NCBI GenBank assembly: GCA_027082875.1
Contig: JALWTK010000046.1
Coordinates: 4,677 to 68,676 of the forward strand
From: Sulfurimonas sp.
Lineage (GTDB): Bacteria; Campylobacterota; Campylobacteria; Campylobacterales; Sulfurimonadaceae
Direction: 5' to 3'
DNA length: 64,000 bases
Under the pieces are notes generated by a model. That model was given only the letters and a program-made list of their open reading frames with translations, was not told the origin of the DNA and made no database searches. Of the stretch, positions 46,240 through 55,021 are shown piece after piece; position 1 is the stretch's first letter, and the number at the start of each line of letters is the position of its first letter. Made by a program: the position numbers and the translations under genes.

Positions 46240-48162
46240 TTAGAATGTGTACTCCATATTGAGCCAGATCTTTCTATCTGAAATCTGTATTTGTTTAGGA
46301 TGGAGGCGACCTTTGTATGCTTGTTCCATGGACTTGTTGAGTATGTTCTCAGCTCTTAAACCAAAAGAGAGATCCTGCGAATAGTGATACTTTAGTGCAG
46401 AAATAAGTTCATAACTTGGAAGTATATTTAAATTTCCAGAACGACTTGTGTACTTGTAGCCATTTTTATAAATCAAAGTATTATAAAAATCAAAGTCTTT
46501 ATAGCTGTTAAAAGCACTTAATAGAGCCTCAAAATTTGGTGAGTAGTTTATATCATCACTATTTTTACCGTAAGCAAGATTAAGAACAATTTTATTGTCA
46601 AGGTCAAATTTATATGTAGAATCAAGTTGAATATAGTCTTGCACTTGATCGTTTGAGGAGTTTATCCATCCATTTGCGGAGAGGTAAGCATACTCTACTA
46701 GACCCATACTTTTCATATAAACATATGTGAGAGTACTCTCTAGTTTATCACTTGTATAATTAAGTGATGCAGTGGCTATATCTGTTTTTATAGTATCTAA
46801 ATTAGGATTTGCCTTATATGGAGTGTTTCCAGGATTATAGATTTGATAAAAGGAGAGAGGGACATAACCTTTTTCGTAAAATAATTTTGCTTTAAATGAG
46901 TCAACTTTTTTTATAAAACCAATCTTTGCTAAGAGCTCATTTTGATCTTTAACCTCTTTGTCGTAACGAAAAAAATCTCCTTTTATAGAGGTGACAACTC
47001 TAAAACTACTATCAATGTCATAATTATCCTCAGCATAGAGGGAGTACATATTTAAAGAGTTTGCAATATTACTGGTATAAGTAGTTGGTGTTAGAGAGTC
47101 TATATAGTCTCCATTTGAGCTAAAACCTTTATATTTATAAAATCCATCAAGAAGAAGGGAGTTGTTAGATGTTGTAAACTTTTTTTCTATGATAGCGGAG
47201 AAAATATTATCTTCAAAGGTAATATCGTAATCTTGTATAGTTTTTGAACTTGGAGTAGCAATAGTAAGACCATTTTGGTCAATATAGTGTCTCTCATAAG
47301 TGAGGTTGTCATAAGAGAGTTGCACTTTAATATCTTGAGAAAAAGTTTGTGAAAGGTGTATATAACTATGTCTTGCCTTTAAATCTCCATTTTCTGGAGT
47401 GTTGTATTTTCCTTTTCCTAAAAAGTTGTCGTTTCGCTTTTGATAACTTGCTATATCAGCATAAAAATTGTTATAGTTTAGGGTTGCAAAGAGATTATAT
47501 CCCTGTTTATTACTATCTATATTGTACTCTTTACCATTGTACGAAGTCTTGTACTGTTCTCTTTTTATAGAGTCACTATTGGCATAGGCAAAATAAGAAA
47601 TACCATTTTCAAGAATATCTGCTGTATACATATTTGCATCATAACTACCAAGGTTATCTGCTAATAAACGCACCTTTGATCCACTATCTCTATTTGCATT
47701 TTTTGTATAGAGCTTTATAATAAGTGCTGCATTTTCATTTCCAAACTCCATAGACGAAGTTGCCTTATATATTTCGATATGGTCAATATACTCAGTTGGC
47801 ATCTCTCCCCAGATTTGAAAAGCACTACCAAAAGAGCTAGAACTTACATCGTGATCATTAATATAGAGTCGTGTATAAGAGAGTGGAAAGTTTTTATTTG
47901 AGGGGATAGCTATACTGAGAATATTACTCGAACTACGTGCAGCATAGATACCAGGGACGATTTTTAAAAAATCATCAAGAGTATGTATCTGCATCTTTTC
48001 TAAATCATCTCGTGTATATACTTCTGCAAAACTTGAAGAGTCTTTCATCGTCATTTTTGAAAGGTCTGAAGTTTGCTGATAACTAGAGAGTAAATCATCT
48101 AAGTTATCTTCAGCACAAGCAAGAAGAGATAAAGATGATAATAAAAAAACATATTTTAACAT
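46240..48162 (-). CDS. TonB-dependent outer-membrane receptor
   Basis: Signal peptide; plug YTRDDLEKM...TL.DFLKIVPG; IDHIEIYK; C-terminal ENILNK...WLNMEYTF. Confidence 0.85.
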   Translation of the reverse strand: MLKYVFLLSSLSLLACAEDNLDDLLSSYQQTSDLSKMTMKDSSSFAEVYTRDDLEKMQIHTLDDFLKIVPGIYAARSSSNILSIAIPSNKNFPLSYTRLYINDHDVSSSSFGSAFQIWGEMPTEYIDHIEIYKATSSMEFGNENAALIIKLYTKNANRDSGSKVRLLADNLGSYDANMYTADILENGISYFAYANSDSIKREQYKTSYNGKEYNIDSNKQGYNLFATLNYNNFYADIASYQKRNDNFLGKGKYNTPENGDLKARHSYIHLSQTFSQDIKVQLSYDNLTYERHYIDQNGLTIATPSSKTIQDYDITFEDNIFSAIIEKKFTTSNNSLLLDGFYKYKGFSSNGDYIDSLTPTTYTSNIANSLNMYSLYAEDNYDIDSSFRVVTSIKGDFFRYDKEVKDQNELLAKIGFIKKVDSFKAKLFYEKGYVPLSFYQIYNPGNTPYKANPNLDTIKTDIATASLNYTSDKLESTLTYVYMKSMGLVEYAYLSANGWINSSNDQVQDYIQLDSTYKFDLDNKIVLNLAYGKNSDDINYSPNFEALLSAFNSYKDFDFYNTLIYKNGYKYTSRSGNLNILPSYELISALKYHYSQDLSFGLRAENILNKSMEQAYKGRLHPKQIQISDRKIWLNMEYTF

Positions 48163-48302: not shown

Positions 48303-48833
48303 ATGGCAGCAAAAGCAACAATTTCAAAAGTAAACTTAAACATCGCAAATATGGACACTCACTACTACGGGGAGCACTCTCTCACCTTAGCACAGCACCC
48401 TTCAGAAAATGATATGCGACTTATGGTAAGAGTTCTCGCATTTATACTCAATGCAAACGAAGACCTAGTTTTTTGTAGGGGAATATCGCAAGATGATGAG
48501 CCAGATCTTTGGCAAAAGAACTTAAGTGGAGACATAGACCTCTGGATAGACCTTGGTCAGCCTGATGAGAAACGGATAAAAAAAGCCTGTGGTCGTTCTG
48601 CAAAGGTCATCATCTACACCTATCAAGAAGGAATGGCGACTTCATGGTTTACTCAAAACAAAAAACTGCTCAATAGATTTAAAAACCTCAGTATCATTTA
48701 TCTTAAAATGGATGCTGACATAGAAGAGTTATGCTCGCGTTCTATGACTCTTCAAGCCAACATTACAGATGGAGAACTCTCCCTTATGAATGATGAGAAG
48801 AGTGTTGCTATTTTAGAAGATACTTGGAAATAA
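48303..48833 (+). CDS. yaeQ: YaeQ-family protein
   Basis: MAAKATI.K, LAQHPSEND.RLMVRVLAF, DEPDLW, LWIDLGQPDEKRI.KAC. Confidence 0.92.
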   Translation: MAAKATISKVNLNIANMDTHYYGEHSLTLAQHPSENDMRLMVRVLAFILNANEDLVFCRGISQDDEPDLWQKNLSGDIDLWIDLGQPDEKRIKKACGRSAKVIIYTYQEGMATSWFTQNKKLLNRFKNLSIIYLKMDADIEELCSRSMTLQANITDGELSLMNDEKSVAILEDTWK

Positions 48834-48854: not shown

Positions 48855-51131
48855 TTAGGCTATCTTAGCTCTTACAATTTTTACTGCCTCGACCATATTT
48901 ATAAGACTTGGTTTTACCTCCTCCCACTTACGAGTTTTAAGACCACAGTCGGGATTTATCCAGAGTTGCTCTTTTGGGAGTACTTCTAGGAGTGACTCTA
49001 TCTGTGTTACCATCTCTTCTACTGTTGGCACACGAGGAGAGTGGATGTCATAAACTCCTGGTCCTACTTCTTGTTTGTAGCCAACTTCTGCAAAGATTTT
49101 TAGAAGTTCGTTACCACTTCTTGCAGTTTCAATGCTTATGACATCTGCATCCATCGCTTCGATAGTTCTGATGATGTCGTTAAACTCACTGTAGCACATG
49201 TGTGTATGTATCTGAGTCTCTACTCTTGCCGAGCTCACTGCTATCTTAAAATCACGAACTGCCCATGCTTCATAAGTGGGAATCTTTGTCTCTCTGAGTG
49301 GATACCCCTCTTTAAACGCCGCCTCATCAACTTGAATCATCTTGATACCTGCGTTTTGTAAGTCATCTACTTCATCACAGATCGCTAAGGCTATCTGCTT
49401 GGAGACATCGCCACGAGCCATATCATCACGAACAAATGACCAGTTTAAAATAGTCACAGGACCAGTGAGCATTCCTTTCATAATCTTGTCAGTTTTACTC
49501 TGAGCATAACTACTCCACTCCACAGTCATAGGCTTAGGACGGCTAATATCTCCATAGATAAAAGGAGGTTTCACACAGCGACTTCCATAACTCTGCACCC
49601 AGCCATTTTGACTAAAACCGTAGCCTTTTAGTTGCTCTCCAAAGTACTCGACCATGTCGTTACGTTCTGGCTCACCATGTACAAGCACTTCTAAGCCACA
49701 CTCCTCTTGAAACGCGACACACTCATCTATGTAGTTTTTCATCTCTTGGATGTAGTCTGCTTTTTCTAGTTCACCGTTTTTGAAGCTACGACGTGCTGCT
49801 CTTACCTCTGGTGTTTGAGGAAAAGAACCTATAGTTGTTGTGGCTAAATCCTCGTAGCCGAGTTGCTCTTTTTGTATCTTGATACGCTCTTCATAAACGC
49901 CATCACGAGAGAGTTTATTTATCTCTTGTACTCTAGTTTGTACTGCCTTATCATGGATAAGTGTAGAAGTTTTACGAGACTCATTTGCTTCTTTATTTTC
50001 CTGGAGTAACTCTTCTTGTTCCTTTGAAAGATTTTCTTCAAAAGTAAGAGCAGTAAGAAGTGAGAGTTCCTCTAGTTTTTCTACTGCATAGGAGAGCCAG
50101 TTTTTAATCTCTGTATCCATCTTCTCTTCATACTTCAATGTAAATGGAGTATGCAAAAGTGAACAGGATGTTGAGAGGAGAATTTGCTCTTTATTTACTA
50201 TGTCTGTAATGCTTTTTATAAGAGTAGAAGTCGCCTTTAAATCACACTTCCAGATATTTCTTCCATCAACTACACCTGCAAGAAGTACTTTATCACTTTT
50301 TGCAATAATTTCTAAACTCTCTGTGTTCTCACTCCCGTGTAGAAAATCAAGTCCAAGTGCCCATATAGGAGTATTTACAAGGATTTTAGTTGCTTCGTTC
50401 GAATGCTCAAAGTAAGTGACTAGAGCTATTTTAATATTAGATGATATTAGTGCTAGTTTATCGTATGTTGGCTTGAGTAGAGAGAGAACTTTTATATCTA
50501 AGTCTTTAACTAAAATAGGCTCATCTATCTGCACAATAATCTCTTCATCAAGTAGGGAAATCTGCTTTAAAAGCTCTTCATAAACTGGTAAAATTTTACT
50601 ATAAAGTTCATAAACATCACCACCATCTTGGCGTTTAGAAAGACCTAAAAATGTAAGTGGTCCTATGATATTTATCTTCGCGTTTATACCAAACTCTTTT
50701 GCCTCTTTGTACTCATTTATAATCTTTGTGGCATTGAGTTTGTAGCTATCTTCAAGAGAAAGTTCTGGAACGATATAGTGGTAGTTTGTATTAAACCACT
50801 TTGTCATCTCCATCGCTACTGCATTTTTGTTTCCTCTAGCCATAGAAAAGTATAATTCTTCATTCTTGAGTGAAGCAAATCTAGAAGGAGTAGCACCAAG
50901 AGTGACTATCATATCGAGCATATTGTCGTATAAAGAGAAGTCATTTGTACTAATGAGGTCTATACCTGCATCTCTTTGATAAGCCCAGTGTCTCTGTTTT
51001 AACTCTAAGGCAACACTCTGTACTTTAGTAAACTCACATTTTTTAGACCAAAAAAGCTCTAAGACTTTTTTTAACTCACGCTGCTCTCCAATTCTTGGAA
51101 ATCCTACTACATAGCTTTTATTTTCTGACAT
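48855..51131 (-). CDS. metE: Cobalamin-independent methionine synthase
   Basis: GFPRIG..RELK, EMTKWFNTNYHY, HGEPERNDMVEYF, HTHMCYSEF, WINPDCGLKTR Zn ligands. Confidence 0.97.
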   Translation of the reverse strand: MSENKSYVVGFPRIGEQRELKKVLELFWSKKCEFTKVQSVALELKQRHWAYQRDAGIDLISTNDFSLYDNMLDMIVTLGATPSRFASLKNEELYFSMARGNKNAVAMEMTKWFNTNYHYIVPELSLEDSYKLNATKIINEYKEAKEFGINAKINIIGPLTFLGLSKRQDGGDVYELYSKILPVYEELLKQISLLDEEIIVQIDEPILVKDLDIKVLSLLKPTYDKLALISSNIKIALVTYFEHSNEATKILVNTPIWALGLDFLHGSENTESLEIIAKSDKVLLAGVVDGRNIWKCDLKATSTLIKSITDIVNKEQILLSTSCSLLHTPFTLKYEEKMDTEIKNWLSYAVEKLEELSLLTALTFEENLSKEQEELLQENKEANESRKTSTLIHDKAVQTRVQEINKLSRDGVYEERIKIQKEQLGYEDLATTTIGSFPQTPEVRAARRSFKNGELEKADYIQEMKNYIDECVAFQEECGLEVLVHGEPERNDMVEYFGEQLKGYGFSQNGWVQSYGSRCVKPPFIYGDISRPKPMTVEWSSYAQSKTDKIMKGMLTGPVTILNWSFVRDDMARGDVSKQIALAICDEVDDLQNAGIKMIQVDEAAFKEGYPLRETKIPTYEAWAVRDFKIAVSSARVETQIHTHMCYSEFNDIIRTIEAMDADVISIETARSGNELLKIFAEVGYKQEVGPGVYDIHSPRVPTVEEMVTQIESLLEVLPKEQLWINPDCGLKTRKWEEVKPSLINMVEAVKIVRAKIA

Positions 51132-51132
51132 T

Positions 51133-51217
51133 ACAATATCCTTTGTTTTTCGTCATTTCTGACTAATATTTTGTTTTTGTTGTTTGTATGGTTTTTATAT
51201 AGTTATAGGGATATTGT
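51133..51217 (-). promoter_or_regulatory. Anti-SD/SD stem sequestering the metE ribosome-binding site
   Basis: mRNA ACAAUAUCC (51217-51209, last codons of the leader ORF) pairs with GGAUAUUGU (51141-51133, metE SD and spacer); the intervening spacer is A/C-rich and G-poor with a GUCA-GAAA-UGAC mini-hairpin. Confidence 0.6.
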
Positions 51218-51397
51218 TAGAGGAGGGTGGATGCCTGAACGGCGAAATGCAAAACAGACAGTATAGTAAGAACATCTTGGTATAAAATGATTTAACAGTA
51301 CCATTAGTTTTGATTTTCTTGTTAGGAGAGTATGACAGTGGCAAGGTTTATTGCTGTTGATGATTTGTGTAAACTTAAGTAAATCTTGTAATGCCAT
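51203..51397 (-). CDS. Putative metE leader peptide (64-aa uORF)
   Basis: AAGGAG RBS 5 nt before ATG; extended -10 about 24 nt upstream; CHCH and GIHPP motifs; stops 71 nt before metE. Confidence 0.65.
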   Translation of the reverse strand: MALQDLLKFTQIINSNKPCHCHTLLTRKSKLMVLLNHFIPRCSYYTVCFAFRRSGIHPPLTISL

Positions 51398-51420
51398 GCT
51401 CTCTCCTTTATATTTTTTGT

Positions 51421-51429
51421 ATTATAGCA
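51421..51429 (-). promoter_or_regulatory. Extended -10 promoter (TGCTATAAT) for leader-metE
   Basis: Perfect TGnTATAAT; predicted TSS near 51414. Confidence 0.65.
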
Positions 51430-51434
51430 CAAAT

Positions 51435-51457
51435 ACTGTTTTTATGAAAAAAACAGT
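51435..51457. promoter_or_regulatory. Palindromic candidate operator in the divergent promoter
   Basis: ACTGTTTTT-ATGAA-AAAAACAGT between two opposing TATAAT boxes (51421-51426 minus, 51469-51474 plus). Confidence 0.35.
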
Positions 51458-51500
51458 CATAGATTCGCTATAATAATGTGAAATAAGCGAAGGACAGTTA

Positions 51501-51950
51501 ATGCAAGAATCTCTCAAATTTATACATGATAAACAGACTGATTACCAAAAAATTATTCTCAAAAATATTGAAAATTTTATTTATAGGGAAGAGCGTTACA
51601 GTACACCTTTTGCTATTATGCTTATCTATGTAGATACGCATGAGTGTAAATCAGAAAATTTAGTAGAAATGTTACGAAAAACAGATCTTCTTATTGATTT
51701 AGATAGTCATGTAAAGGCCATTGTGTTTGATTCCGTCTCCAATGAATTTTATATTAAGGCCGCTGAAAATATTGAGTATAAACTAGAAACTAAAAAAATA
51801 AATCTTTTATATAGTAGTGTAGTTGATTCAGAAAACTATAGTAAAAACTATACAAAGATGGTACATGATTTAGTAGAGATTTTAGAATATGCTATAGAAA
51901 ACAATTTTTCTAATGTTGTTTTGGATAATGATGAAGGTGATTTCCTATAG
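51501..51950 (+). CDS. Hypothetical protein, degenerate GGDEF-like fold
   Basis: RYSTPFAIMLIYVD...LRKTD resembles the GGDEF N-terminal strands; no GG(D/E)EF. Confidence 0.6.
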   Translation: MQESLKFIHDKQTDYQKIILKNIENFIYREERYSTPFAIMLIYVDTHECKSENLVEMLRKTDLLIDLDSHVKAIVFDSVSNEFYIKAAENIEYKLETKKINLLYSSVVDSENYSKNYTKMVHDLVEILEYAIENNFSNVVLDNDEGDFL

Positions 51951-51953
51951 AGT

Positions 51954-53540
51954 TTACTCCTTTACTATAAGACAGTTTCTTCCACTATCTTTTGCTTCAT
52001 AGAGTGCATCATCAACACGTTTGAGCAAGCTCTCTTTTGTATCAGCTGCTTTAAATGCTGTCATACCAATACTTATAGTAATATTTGAAGTTTTTTCAAA
52101 AGAATACTCTGCGATAAGTAAACGCAGTTTTTGAGCTACAGTTGATGCTTCAACTACAGAGATATGTGGAAGGAGTAACAGAAACTCTTCACCACCCCAT
52201 CGTGCAAACTCATCACCTTCTCTAATTTCTGCACTAATAAGTCTAGTTATCTCTTTTAAAACATAGTCACCAACATCATGTCCAAAGCTGTCATTAACCT
52301 TTTTAAAGAAGTCTATATCTAGCATTAGAAGAAAAAACTCCTCTTTGTAACGGTTAAACTCGACTATTTTAGTATCTAAGACTTCGTTCATATAGTAACG
52401 ATTTGCGATTCCTGTGAGGTTGTCTGTTTTAACTAAGAGTTCTAATTTCTTTTTTGTCTCTTGAATATCAGTGATATCCATTACAGTTCCCAGACCAGCA
52501 TGAGCACCTTCATAAAAGATAGTTTGTGTCATAACTCGCATCACTCGTGCTTTACCATCAGCATGCATAAATATAAGGTCATCATACTCTTTTGGAAACT
52601 CTTCTCCCCTAAGACGACGATTTACTATATCTTTTATGGACTCTTGAGAAGAGCTTGTTATAAGTTCCCAAGGGCGCTTTGTAAGCATCTCTTCACGTGT
52701 ATAGCCACACATCTTAGAAAACGCATCATTTACATAAACATAATAGTCTTGATAGATAAAAATCCCCATAAGTGAAGTCTCTGTGATTTTACGAAACTTC
52801 TCTTCACTATACTGAAGTTTTGCAAGAGAGTCTCGTGTTTGTGAGATATCATAAACACTCCCCATCAGAGTGATTGGCTTTCCTTTTTCATTAAATTCGA
52901 TACTTCCCGAACCTCGAACAAAGGCTACAGTTCCATCTTTGCGATGGACTTCATGCTCAATGCTATAAGGCTCTTTACTAGTCATAGCTTTGCGTACTAG
53001 TTCTTGAAGGATGTTTTGATCTTTTTGTTTAAGATAAGAGAGAAATTGTGCAAAGCTAGGTTTAAAGGATTGTGGTTCTTCTCCAAATATACGGTAAACT
53101 TCATCAGACCAAGTGATAATATCCTGTACTATATCCCATTTCCAATGCCCTATATGAGCAATTTGCTGCATCATCTCAAGCTCATTCTTAATACTTTTAT
53201 AGTGACTAGTATCGCAGAAATATGTAATAATATCACCATTATTCAGTTTTTGGATTTTATTACAGTGCCAGTACTCTTGAGTACTACGGGCTTGAAGTTC
53301 TATATCTACTCTTAAACTGCTATTGTCATTTTCTACTTTTTGCAGGGCATCTTCAAGATCTCTTTCCAAAGGGGAGAGAAAAATGTCGCTAAGTGGAGTA
53401 CCAACTAGCTCCTCTTTCGAACTCTTTAACTCTTGAGTGGCAAGGTTATTAGCCCCTACACAAGAAAAACTATTTTTGATACATCGAAAGAGTAGTAAGT
53501 TGATAGGGATATCATCAAGAGGAAGTTGCACTATGGACAT
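51954..53540 (-). CDS. Cytoplasmic PAS-PAS diguanylate cyclase
   Basis: HIGHWKWD...WSDEVYRIFG PAS, second PAS, DNLTGIANR, RWGGEEF. Confidence 0.92.
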   Translation of the reverse strand: MSIVQLPLDDIPINLLLFRCIKNSFSCVGANNLATQELKSSKEELVGTPLSDIFLSPLERDLEDALQKVENDNSSLRVDIELQARSTQEYWHCNKIQKLNNGDIITYFCDTSHYKSIKNELEMMQQIAHIGHWKWDIVQDIITWSDEVYRIFGEEPQSFKPSFAQFLSYLKQKDQNILQELVRKAMTSKEPYSIEHEVHRKDGTVAFVRGSGSIEFNEKGKPITLMGSVYDISQTRDSLAKLQYSEEKFRKITETSLMGIFIYQDYYVYVNDAFSKMCGYTREEMLTKRPWELITSSSQESIKDIVNRRLRGEEFPKEYDDLIFMHADGKARVMRVMTQTIFYEGAHAGLGTVMDITDIQETKKKLELLVKTDNLTGIANRYYMNEVLDTKIVEFNRYKEEFFLLMLDIDFFKKVNDSFGHDVGDYVLKEITRLISAEIREGDEFARWGGEEFLLLLPHISVVEASTVAQKLRLLIAEYSFEKTSNITISIGMTAFKAADTKESLLKRVDDALYEAKDSGRNCLIVKE

Positions 53541-53608: not shown

Positions 53609-55021
53609 CTAAAGAGACTTTAAAAACTCACTCATAAAACGCACTCCAGCACCTGTTCCACCGTAGACATTTACATCCCATGGAGATTCAGTATAAGCTG
53701 ATCCTGCGATATCAAAGTGAAGCCATTTATCTTTGTTCTCTTCTTTGATGAAAGCATCCAAAAAGAGTCCAGCTGTGATAGCACCACCGTATGGTTTGTT
53801 AGAGATGTTACAGATGTCTGCTATCTCGCTTTTTATCTGTTTTTTGAGGTGTTTGTTAAATGGAAGTGTCGCTGTGAGCTCTCCTGCATTTGCAGAGGCT
53901 TTACCTACTGAGTGCTTCAGTCTGCTTGAGTGTCCCATTACACCAGTTGTGTACTGTCCTACTGCTACCATACAAGCACCTGTAAGTGTTGCAAAGTCAA
54001 AGATATAGTCTGCTTTTACCTTGTCTTGTGCATAATCAAGAACATCAGCAAGGACTAAACGCCCCTCTGCATCAGTGTTTCTTACTTCTATAGTTTTACC
54101 GTTACGCGATACTAAGACATCATCAGGTTTGTAGGCATTACCCCCTATCATGTTCTCAACTGCACCGATGAAAGCATTTATCTCTACATCAAGTTTCATC
54201 TCTGAAGCTGCTTTAATGATACCTAAGACTGCACAAGCACCAGCCTTATCCATCTTCATAGTTACCATAGAAGTACCCGGCTTAAGTGAAAGTCCACCAC
54301 TATCGTAAGTGAGACCTTTTCCTATGAGGTTGACTTTTTTCTTTGCGTTTTTAGGCTTATATGAGAGGTGGATAAGCTGAGACTCATGGCGAGAAGCACG
54401 ACCAACTGCGAGCATAGAGGTACAGTTCTCTTTAAGAAGTGCTTTTTCATCAAGTATTTTACAGCCTAGTCCATTTTCTTTTGCAAGCTTTTTAGCAAGC
54501 TTAGCAAATGTAACTGGATTTAGGTCTTCTGGTGTAGTGTTTACGATGTCACGAGTAAAACAAGTTGCATCAGCTACGATAACCGCATCACTAAAAACTT
54601 TTATAGCAGACTTATAGTCATCTTTTGTGTAGATAAGTGAGATGTCTTTGAGTTTTGGTTTACTTTTTGTAGTCTTATAAACCTCGTAGCTATAGCCACC
54701 GAGAACAAAGCCCTCTACTAATGCAGGTATAAGAGTTTTGTCTTCTATTGCAATGTTAGCACTTTTGTATTCAGTGTTTTTAAGAGCTTTTATAGCTACT
54801 GCACTTACACTTCTTACATCATCAGAAGTATGTGAGTCCACACCACAAACAAGAGTGTTTTTGTTATGTAAAAAGCAGATAGAGTCTTGGCTTGCTTTGA
54901 ATCCAGCAAGCTTAAGAGCTTTTTTGTTTTTACTTTTTTTGAGTTGATCAGCTGTGAGATACTCAAGAGAGATATCTGAAACAGCATCTGCAATATTTTG
55001 ATTAAGGAGTTGAATGTTCAT
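53609..55021 (-). CDS. pepA: Leucyl aminopeptidase (M17)
   Basis: GKGLTYDSGG, MKMDKAGA, NTDAEGRLVLAD, DFATLTGA, HFDIAG; start 55021 (alternative 55033). Confidence 0.95.
   Translation of the reverse strand: MNIQLLNQNIADAVSDISLEYLTADQLKKSKNKKALKLAGFKASQDSICFLHNKNTLVCGVDSHTSDDVRSVSAVAIKALKNTEYKSANIAIEDKTLIPALVEGFVLGGYSYEVYKTTKSKPKLKDISLIYTKDDYKSAIKVFSDAVIVADATCFTRDIVNTTPEDLNPVTFAKLAKKLAKENGLGCKILDEKALLKENCTSMLAVGRASRHESQLIHLSYKPKNAKKKVNLIGKGLTYDSGGLSLKPGTSMVTMKMDKAGACAVLGIIKAASEMKLDVEINAFIGAVENMIGGNAYKPDDVLVSRNGKTIEVRNTDAEGRLVLADVLDYAQDKVKADYIFDFATLTGACMVAVGQYTTGVMGHSSRLKHSVGKASANAGELTATLPFNKHLKKQIKSEIADICNISNKPYGGAITAGLFLDAFIKEENKDKWLHFDIAGSAYTESPWDVNVYGGTGAGVRFMSEFLKSL

Follow-up and report, generated by a model that had tools for sequence, protein, structure and literature searches.

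A conserved Pro-Pro leader peptide upstream of metE in Sulfurimonas, a probable nascent-peptide arrest switch of the Campylobacterales

Cobalamin riboswitches are among the most widespread riboswitches, with metE and btuB as textbook targets, and the RF00174 riboswitch controls metE and btuB/btuF in many other bacteria. CruR (Bp2923, DUF2946) is a copper-responsive upstream open reading frame (uORF) of Bordetella pertussis that heads an operon with a TonB-dependent transporter; its Cys motif lies 45 residues from a C-terminal RAPP, copper relieves the arrest, which leads to Rho termination before the transporter gene, and its export signal is dispensable for regulation (PMC9426467). CutF of Rhodobacter capsulatus (DUF2946) stalls at a proline motif and thereby melts a stem-loop shielding the downstream ribosome-binding site (RBS; bioRxiv 10.1101/2025.02.05.636593). 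Here, we analyse a window of 64,000 nucleotides of Sulfurimonas sp. (contig JALWTK010000046.1, positions 4,677 to 68,676), in which an open reading frame (ORF) of 64 codons precedes metE, the gene for cobalamin-independent methionine synthase. This ORF is most likely the translated regulatory leader of a previously undescribed family. We consider it probable that it acts as a switch based on nascent-peptide arrest, with cobalamin status as its most likely signal. Its build is like that of CruR and CutF, with no detectable kinship to either.

The elements of the locus are as follows, in the order in which they would be transcribed and with the positions of the window.

51421-51429, minus strand: extended -10 promoter element TGCTATAAT, read from the sequence.
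51403-51408, minus strand: leader Shine-Dalgarno (SD) AAGGAG, 5 nt 5' of the ATG at 51397, read from the sequence.
51203-51397, minus strand: leader ORF, 64 codons plus TAA, MALQDLLKFTQIINSNKPCHCHTLLTRKSKLMVLLNHFIPRCSYYTVCFAFRRSGIHPPLTISL, from the ORF list.
51335-51343, minus strand: codons C19-H20-C21, from alignments; C21 is the Cys that is invariant in the family and precedes P58 by 37 residues.
51221-51244, minus strand: codons R52-P59 (RRSGIHPP), the proposed arrest motif; G55, P58 and P59 are invariant, arrest is putative.
51209-51217, minus strand: anti-SD ACAAUAUCC (ACAATATCC), codons 61-63, read from the sequence.
51132-51202, minus strand: G-poor spacer of 71 nt (composition A41 T13 C10 G7).
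51133-51143, minus strand: metE SD (AAGGA) and flank, within which GGAUAUUGU at 51141-51133 pairs with the anti-SD (from sequence, minimum free energy (MFE) structure and covariation tests).
48855-51131, minus strand: metE, 758 aa, ATG at 51131, the proposed regulated gene, from the ORF list.

An initial annotation, made from this sequence alone, had claimed the extended -10 at 51429-51421, an AAGGAG 5 nt before an ATG and a 64-codon ORF ending at TAA, all of which are present (51408-51403 for the AAGGAG, 51397-51203 for the ORF). Its description of a 71-nt spacer that is G-poor and A/C-rich stands for the length, the scarcity of G and the abundance of A, and must be tempered for C, which is only moderately frequent (10 C in 71 nt). 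The leader transcript is predicted to start near 51414. The promoter-like match ending at 51421 was the only one in a minus-strand scan of 50900-51800, which returned no promoter-like site inside the spacer and no terminator-like site; an equivalent TGnTATAAT lies 5' of the leaders of five close relatives (L002-L004, L007 and L018). The leader ends in ...FAFRRSGIHPPLTISL before its TAA stop, and P58 (51226-51224) and P59 (51223-51221) are both encoded by CCT. Counted from the first nucleotide of codon P58, ACAATATCC at 51217-51209 occupies +9 to +17 nt; it is perfectly complementary to GGATATTGT at 51141-51133, a segment that includes the metE SD. The 9-bp stem that had been proposed between codons 61-63 and the metE SD region is thus real at the level of the letters; it recurs in the MFE structure and has a duplex energy of -11.8 kcal/mol.

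Comparison of relatives establishes that the peptide itself is conserved. Among 11 Sulfurimonas copies (55 pairs), the median ratio of nonsynonymous to synonymous divergence (dN/dS) is 0.16 at a dS of ~0.9, and variability at codon positions 1, 2 and 3 is 0.14, 0.07 and 0.24, the third being the most variable. The ORF stays open in ~130 loci that differ widely in sequence and GC content, and no frameshifted copy was found in relatives. Several expectations of the initial annotation could be followed here: a dN/dS below 1, a conserved C-terminal RRxG[IV]HPP and covarying anti-SD and SD segments (see below) were all observed, and frameshifts in relatives, which it had named as grounds for rejection, did not occur. 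A peptide profile matches 208 of the 401 sampled Campylobacterales genomes, and 96 family clusters with lengths of 59-147 aa were recovered among 1.84 billion representative proteins. Named members belong to Sulfurimonas, Sulfurovum, Arcobacter, Hydrogenimonas, Helicobacteraceae and Campylobacteraceae and carry the NCBI annotation "hypothetical protein"; Pfam and NCBIfam hold no family model for the window peptide. Across families, conservation is detectable at the protein level only.

The family comprises a metE type and a paralogous type found 5' of TonB-dependent receptor genes. Both share one invariant Cys and a final Pro-Pro, and G-x-x-P-P is invariant in the metE type. The C-terminal motif reads [IVL][HSA]-Pro-Pro, or [IVLCT][HAS]PP in its wider form: across 101 loci, the residue before the first Pro is H in 68, A in 18 and S in 14, and the one before that is V in 43 and I in 37. 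The tail beyond Pro-Pro is unconserved and spans 0-65 residues. Within the CxC motif (CHC in the window), the second Cys alone is invariant, and relatives have Y, Q, L or N in place of His20; two Campylobacter-like loci lack the motif. The distance from this Cys to the first Pro is 34, 35 or 37 residues in 98 of the 99 loci that keep CxC and 32 in the remaining one, despite free divergence of the intervening sequence. It is 37 in 57 metE-class loci and 34 in 13 of the 14 top receptor-type loci (L159-L172).

Longer members of ~110 aa carry an N-terminal [KR]xP[KR]GFGKNYFTLSAIQA motif, an acidic PPxDE stretch and then KPCHCN, and end in IPRCPYYTVCFAFRRSGVHPP (metE type) or NYFKTLNNAISPP (receptor type). 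This long form is ancestral-looking; the window peptide is a short form devoid of the N-terminal part, and short forms (49-72 aa) occur in three lineages. In seven loci (L189-L195, in genomes G027, G040, G034, G151, G267, G093 and G122), the motif at the N-terminus of long leaders (KGF[GK]xxYFSLAAI...) corresponds to the signal-peptide region of BtuB-like receptors; the receptors that share it are full-length BtuB-like TonB receptors of ~640 aa from four other families of the order. Since the motif is common to both, the 5' end of a BtuB-like receptor gene is the probable origin of the leader. In family f4, a BtuB-like receptor gene lies directly upstream of the leader-metE pair.

Purifying selection on the peptide, the signal-peptide-like N-terminus that the long forms share with BtuB-like receptors and the annotation of members as hypothetical proteins would also suit a stable small protein, for instance a secreted or membrane chaperone for cobalamin or a metal, that is merely co-transcribed with metE or the receptor gene and whose anti-SD pairing is incidental. 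We hold this to be quite improbable. AlphaFold2 returned a low-confidence helical model for the 64-aa peptide (pLDDT 59.7, pTM 0.30), the N-terminal half is dispensable, as the short forms illustrate, and conservation peaks at the extreme C-terminal x-P-P. The covariation of the anti-SD and the strict placement of the leader just 5' of two gene classes speak for a role in cis.

Taken alone, the window's anti-SD pairing is only suggestive: it is 9 bp long and AU-rich, and shuffling yields a 9-nt complement by chance in 0.65% of cases for the 41-nt tail and in 4.6% for the entire 263-nt leader. It is the comparative data that make it significant. For 91 metE-type loci, we paired the mRNA around and after Pro-Pro with various SD windows. 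The mean duplex energy was -10.05 kcal/mol with the locus's own SD window, compared with -7.3 kcal/mol with the SD windows of other loci, -6.65 kcal/mol for shuffled tails and -7.4 kcal/mol for an equal-sized control window further up the ORF; the stronger pairing with the own SD is significant (Wilcoxon p = 3e-9). Among 29 mutually divergent representatives, the corresponding values are -9.86 (own) and -7.55 (foreign), and none of 20,000 permutations of tails and SDs reached the observed mean (P < 5e-5). The anti-SD and the SD thus covary, and the pairs are lineage-specific, as listed here (anti-SD / SD).

ACAAUAUCC / GGAUAUUGU (the window)
CUCCUUCUUUU / AAAAGAAGGAG
AUUCACUCCUUU / AAAGGGGUGAAU
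UCCUCCCUA / UAGGGAGGA
UCUCCUUGUU / AACAAGGAGA

The anti-SD is anchored to Pro-Pro. The bases that pair with the GG of the SD lie at +0 to +17 nt from the first Pro codon, with a standard deviation of 5.9 nt, against 31 nt when measured from the stop codon, and they remain beside Pro-Pro even where the frame runs on for 14-65 codons. With Pro-Pro in the P and A sites, +0 to +17 nt falls within the mRNA channel of the ribosome, as judged from footprint geometry. The first Pro codon is CCT (CCU) in 71 of the 101 loci (~70%), compared with 30% of the Pro codons in the downstream genes.

These positions bear on a simpler account, raised as a caveat by the initial annotation, in which there is no programmed arrest, ordinary translational coupling melts the anti-SD helix and any regulation acts on leader initiation through a 5' helix or a trans-acting factor. 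In its favour, the stop in the window lies 5 codons past Pro-Pro and terminating ribosomes would also cover the anti-SD; the stop overlaps the start codon in several loci (gap of -4 nt), a 5' helix predicted to sequester the leader SD and AUG shows a few compensatory pairs (see below), and elongation factor P (EF-P) normally resolves Pro-Pro pauses. Against it, the anti-SD follows Pro-Pro rather than the stop, which favours a pause over coupling at the stop and is, on these alignments, the strongest argument for it. Coupling would also leave unexplained the ~45 strongly conserved residues, the invariant Cys and the fixed distance between Cys and Pro. We therefore judge coupling improbable.

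In the arrest model that we favour, the ribosome translating the leader would pause or arrest at the invariant Pro58-Pro59, its mRNA channel would hold the anti-SD (+9 to +17 nt) and the metE SD would be left single-stranded, allowing metE to be translated. Upon relief of the arrest, the ribosome would finish and leave, the 9-bp anti-SD:SD helix would form and metE would be turned off. We infer both the stalling at Pro-Pro and its activating effect on metE from the arrangement of these elements, which supports the Pro-Pro-pause switch unmasking the metE SD that the initial annotation had put forward. The direction of regulation is the one that B12 regulation of metE and btuB requires and the one suggested by analogy with CruR.

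Three observations concern the geometry of this region. A hairpin (GTCAGAAATGAC) at 51163-51152 on the minus strand lies 10 nt 5' of the metE SD, in the loop closed by the anti-SD:SD helix; it is kept in most Sulfurimonas copies, and L018 has a compensatory variant, CTCA...TGAG (CTCAAAAATGAG). In L070 and L071 (genus g29), the leader frame extends beyond Pro-Pro for 65 codons and terminates within metE, 67 nt from its start, so that non-arrested ribosomes would traverse the metE start region in another frame. The metE-linked leader L179 (genome G173) has a receptor-like C-terminus, ...RYFHTDTSPP, and Pro-Pro is followed at once by its stop; which of the two C-termini a leader has thus does not strictly depend on the gene behind it.

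A stalled ribosome may also exclude Rho from the spacer, and the same leader and arrest could have Rho-dependent attenuation in the style of CruR or TnaC as their main output, with the anti-SD helix secondary; once the ribosome is released, Rho would terminate transcription ahead of metE. Family spacers average 18% C and 8% G, C exceeds G in 85% of loci compared with 37% of upstream flanks, and the same holds for the leader ORF in 87% of loci, marking the spacer as a possible Rho loading region. In the receptor class, a conserved, A/C-rich and G-poor stretch of about 51-62 nt lies between Pro-Pro and the start codon, and anti-SD pairing is nearly absent; these G-poor spacers, together with the weak pairing, make a Rho-dependent output plausible as well. 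The Rho utilization (rut) site of CruR was located in a C>G bubble, and its response is bicyclomycin-sensitive (PMC9426467). On the other side, the spacers are mainly A-rich rather than C-rich, as in the window, and often just 50-75 nt long, and the covariation of the anti-SD in the metE class would need a separate explanation. Such attenuation, which is compatible with the arrest switch, is a possibility that we entertain tentatively.

Could the conserved element be the RNA, a divergent cobalamin or S-adenosylmethionine (SAM) riboswitch within which the open frame is incidental? The leader does fold better than its shuffles (RNAfold of 51414-51110, z = -3.5, with the anti-SD:SD stem in the MFE structure), and GCCACUG in the window resembles the B12 box of what we take to be the riboswitch consensus. 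We rejected this lookalike (GCCACTG at 51342-51336): it spells the Cys-His-Cys codons and undergoes synonymous changes in relatives, for example TGTCATTGT. Rfam searches of 50900-51700 at E <= 10, of the window at the gathering score and of 12 related loci all came back empty, and the RF00174 covariance model matched neither the window nor these loci. The RNAalifold consensus of 13 Sulfurimonas leaders is weak (-8.4 kcal/mol, covariation term -1.1); it missed the anti-SD helix, as spacer lengths differ and some sequences were shortened, and the anti-SD was evaluated by the cross-locus duplex energies instead. Given also the low dN/dS at a dS of ~0.9 and the restriction of cross-family conservation to the protein, a riboswitch is highly implausible.

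A classical amino-acid attenuator of the trpL or hisL type was likewise discarded: there is no run of Met codons, the only two in the leader being M1 and the unconserved M32, and no minus-strand terminator-like site. At the 5' end of the leader, the SD and AUG (AAGGAGAG...AUGGCA; 51408-51392) are predicted to pair with the Cys-His codons and CUCUCCU (51343-51324). This helix is retained in the 13-sequence consensus, with 4 pairs changed on both sides, and may tune initiation of the leader itself.

The genes behind the leader fall into two classes. In every metE-type locus examined (~120), metE lies directly 3' of the leader and its homologues are 57-90% identical. The paralogous leaders are directly followed by a TonB-dependent receptor gene (Plug and barrel domains) in 14 of 14 top loci and in all weaker ones examined. 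The best curated match of these receptors is to TonB-B12/BtuB models (318 bits, L060), and the gene behind the receptor usually encodes a BtuF-like binding protein (107 bits), an ATP-binding cassette (ABC) ATPase or a CobT-like product. No other downstream class was found among ~130 loci, and none of them has copper, zinc or other methionine-pathway genes there. The RF00174 cobalamin riboswitch is almost missing from the order, with matches in 2 of 401 genomes compared with 7 of 14 control genomes. The two matching genomes are G338 and G403 (L072-L076), the latter also having a leader 5' of metE; these matches may reflect horizontal acquisition or contamination.

The distribution of the leader follows that of B12-dependent methionine synthase, MetH. 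The metE-type leader is present in 200 of 270 metE-bearing genomes. Among those tested for metH, the gene is present in 81 of 91 leader-bearing genomes and in 0 of 63 genomes with a leaderless metE, and seven apparent leaderless metH carriers all proved to have a divergent leader. The window's own genome (G000) carries metH, split over two contigs. The leader thus occurs where B12-dependent MetH can replace MetE, which fits the logic of B12 repression. The confinement of the family to metE or BtuB-like/BtuF contexts, the near-absence of the cobalamin riboswitch and the co-occurrence with MetH are new observations of this analysis, and owing to them cobalamin is the most likely signal. Cobalamin sufficiency, read through the invariant Cys 32-37 residues from Pro-Pro, would relieve the arrest, by analogy with CruR.

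The switch could also operate as proposed and respond to something else, namely a metal (Cu, Zn or Co) bound by Cys and His or the status of methionine, SAM or homocysteine. Its nearest mechanistic precedents sense copper through Cys motifs, the leader has two further Cys besides CHCH, MetE depends on zinc, and metals are likewise among the imports of TonB receptors. The pairing of metE with btuB/btuF, to which a CobT-like gene is added, is the most typical regulon of cobalamin riboswitches and speaks against these signals, as do the absence of copper, zinc or other methionine-pathway genes behind the leaders, the co-occurrence of the leader with MetH beside MetE (81 of 91 against 0 of 63 genomes), the scarcity of the riboswitch, and a motif in which a single Cys is invariant and His20 is exchangeable. 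We rate a signal other than cobalamin as unlikely.

A further step would be that the nascent leader itself senses cobalamin: with the ribosome on Pro-Pro, the Cys, 32-37 residues from the peptidyl-transferase centre and near the tunnel exit, would ligate or bind a corrinoid, folding or pulling would free the arrest, and metE and B12 uptake would be turned off. The leader would then be a co-translational protein sensor of B12 standing in for the cobalamin riboswitch across most Campylobacterales. We regard direct sensing, including this replacement, as conceivable and decidedly less certain than the switch.

Several points weigh against the arrest switch and its cobalamin signal. The pairing in the window could by itself be fortuitous at the frequencies given above, and ~40% of loci pair weakly (above -8 kcal/mol), among them the whole TonB-receptor class at -3 to -6 kcal/mol, so that unmasking of the SD is not a universal output. 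Ordinary Pro-Pro pauses are relieved by EF-P. The motif [IVL][HSA]PP is a non-validated arrest sequence, and RAPP peptides need their Arg, AAPP variants being read through (PMC12992588). The leader contains no known cobalamin-binding motif, the receptor scores do not reach the curated cut-off for BtuB, and for one binding protein the heme-type IsdE gives the higher score, a further point in favour of a signal other than cobalamin. The association of leader and metH (Fisher p = 5e-33, spanning >15 families) is uncorrected for phylogeny. Finally, the Campylobacter-like family f12 (L062-L066 and L013) keeps the leader while metH is absent in 8 of 8 genomes, which would again suit another signal.

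The leaders of f12 are 49-64 aa long with spacers of 137-191 nt and an anti-SD pairing of about -4.5 kcal/mol, and L013 and L066 have no Cys motif; in this family the leader may be decaying or repurposed. Around the window's own locus, two neighbouring features deserve mention. The TonB Plug receptor gene at 46240-48162 (minus strand, 640 aa) was considered as a member of the unit and rejected: the protein has no relationship to the BtuB-like receptors behind the leaders (BLASTP E = 0.016), and the opposite-strand yaeQ (48303-48833, plus strand) intervenes between it and metE. Upstream, the leader promoter directly follows a leucyl-aminopeptidase-like gene in the five close relatives; in the window, the end of that gene is at 53609 and two additional ORFs intervene before the promoter, at 51501-51950 (plus strand, 149 aa, no Pfam match) and at 51954-53540 (minus strand, a 528-aa protein with a GGDEF-like motif at its end).

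In an order that includes Sulfurimonas, Sulfurovum, Arcobacter, Hydrogenimonas and Campylobacter-like lineages, a Pro-Pro leader peptide thus occupies the two positions typical of the cobalamin riboswitch, which is almost missing there. The genes for these leaders are currently annotated as "hypothetical protein" or overlooked. B12 cross-feeding is ecologically important in the sulfidic and hydrothermal habitats that these bacteria dominate. If the peptide does report B12, it would be the first nascent-chain sensor of an organic cofactor within the literature that we searched, it would extend the principle of CruR and CutF beyond metals, and it would show that RNA-based and peptide-based sensors can replace each other in evolution. 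A motif outside the RAPP type, [IV][HSA]PP with a distant Cys, joins the candidate arrest sequences.

Among known systems, the cobalamin riboswitch (RF00174) shares genomic position and regulon (metE, btuB/btuF) with the leader. In both cases, repression of metE is sensible only with MetH, and the riboswitch often acts by sequestering the SD. The riboswitch is an RNA aptamer, whereas the conserved element here is a peptide and no such RNA is detectable. The metE leader of Mycobacterium tuberculosis combines a B12 riboswitch with a translated uORF whose translation suppresses MetE (PMC11260477). A translated uORF 5' of metE that modulates MetE in a B12-responsive leader is the common feature; in M. 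tuberculosis the riboswitch is the sensor, and there is no conserved arrest-type peptide. Full-text literature searches returned no account of leader peptides ahead of metE or btuB in Campylobacterota, in keeping with the statement of the initial annotation that it knew of no such metE leader.

That annotation had taken SecM, MifM and VemP as its models. The RAPP/RGPP peptides (SecM, ApdA, ApcA, ApdP and uORFs 5' of TonB receptors; PMC12992588, PMC10987492) resemble the leader in having a motif that ends in Pro-Pro near the C-terminus and in being small, often signal-bearing proteins encoded just 5' of the controlled gene. They differ in sequence and in target. GIHPP had already been noted as unlike RAPP or RAGP, and indeed none of the 101 loci has an Arg at position -3, counted from the first of the two Pro; the place of the RAPP Arg is taken by I, V, L, C or T, and Arg residues are found at -6/-5 instead. 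The genes controlled would be a cytoplasmic enzyme and B12 uptake, not Sec or YidC. Surveys keyed on RAPP/RGPP would have missed the family, and a survey of RAPP-type arrest peptides mentions neither a cobalamin nor a methionine synthase context (PMC12992588).

The DUF2946 uORFs CutF and CruR are closer. A stem-loop over an RBS that is melted by a stall, as in CutF, is the geometry that we propose for metE. In CutF, however, the ligand, periplasmic Cu, induces the stall and turns the downstream gene on, the motif is PPP with involvement of EF-P, co-translational secretion is required, and both the sequence family and the target (the multicopper oxidase CutO) are others. The C-terminal RAPP or PPP of the DUF2946 family is replaced here by [IVLCT][HAS]PP with its variable tail.

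CruR differs from the leader in several respects. No sequence relation is detectable, and Pfam hmmscan gave no DUF2946 match for 27 members at E <= 10. CruR and its family have CXXC where the leader has CxC with one invariant Cys, and the 45 residues from the Cys motif to RAPP correspond to 34, 35 or 37 (32 once) up to [IVL][HSA]PP, the principle of a fixed spacing being common to both. Copper genes are controlled there, as opposed to metE and B12-uptake genes here, and the metE class adds the anti-SD:SD helix. The likenesses lie in the architecture. Each is a small uORF protein; CruR stands ahead of a TonB-dependent transporter operon, as the receptor-type leaders do, and in both a conserved Cys motif precedes, at a fixed distance, a C-terminal xxPP, which stands near the stop in CruR and in the window's leader. 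A C>G region serves CruR as its rut site, and the leader spacers, although A-rich rather than C-rich, have C>G in 85% of loci. The dispensable N-terminal export signal of CruR may have its counterpart in the signal-like N-terminus of the long leader forms, which the window form does not carry. In CruR, a ligand that relieves the arrest turns the downstream genes off, which is the direction that B12 repression of metE and btuB requires. By sequence tests the leader family is thus a member of neither the DUF2946 nor the RAPP group, yet, as judged from its layout, it would work like both.

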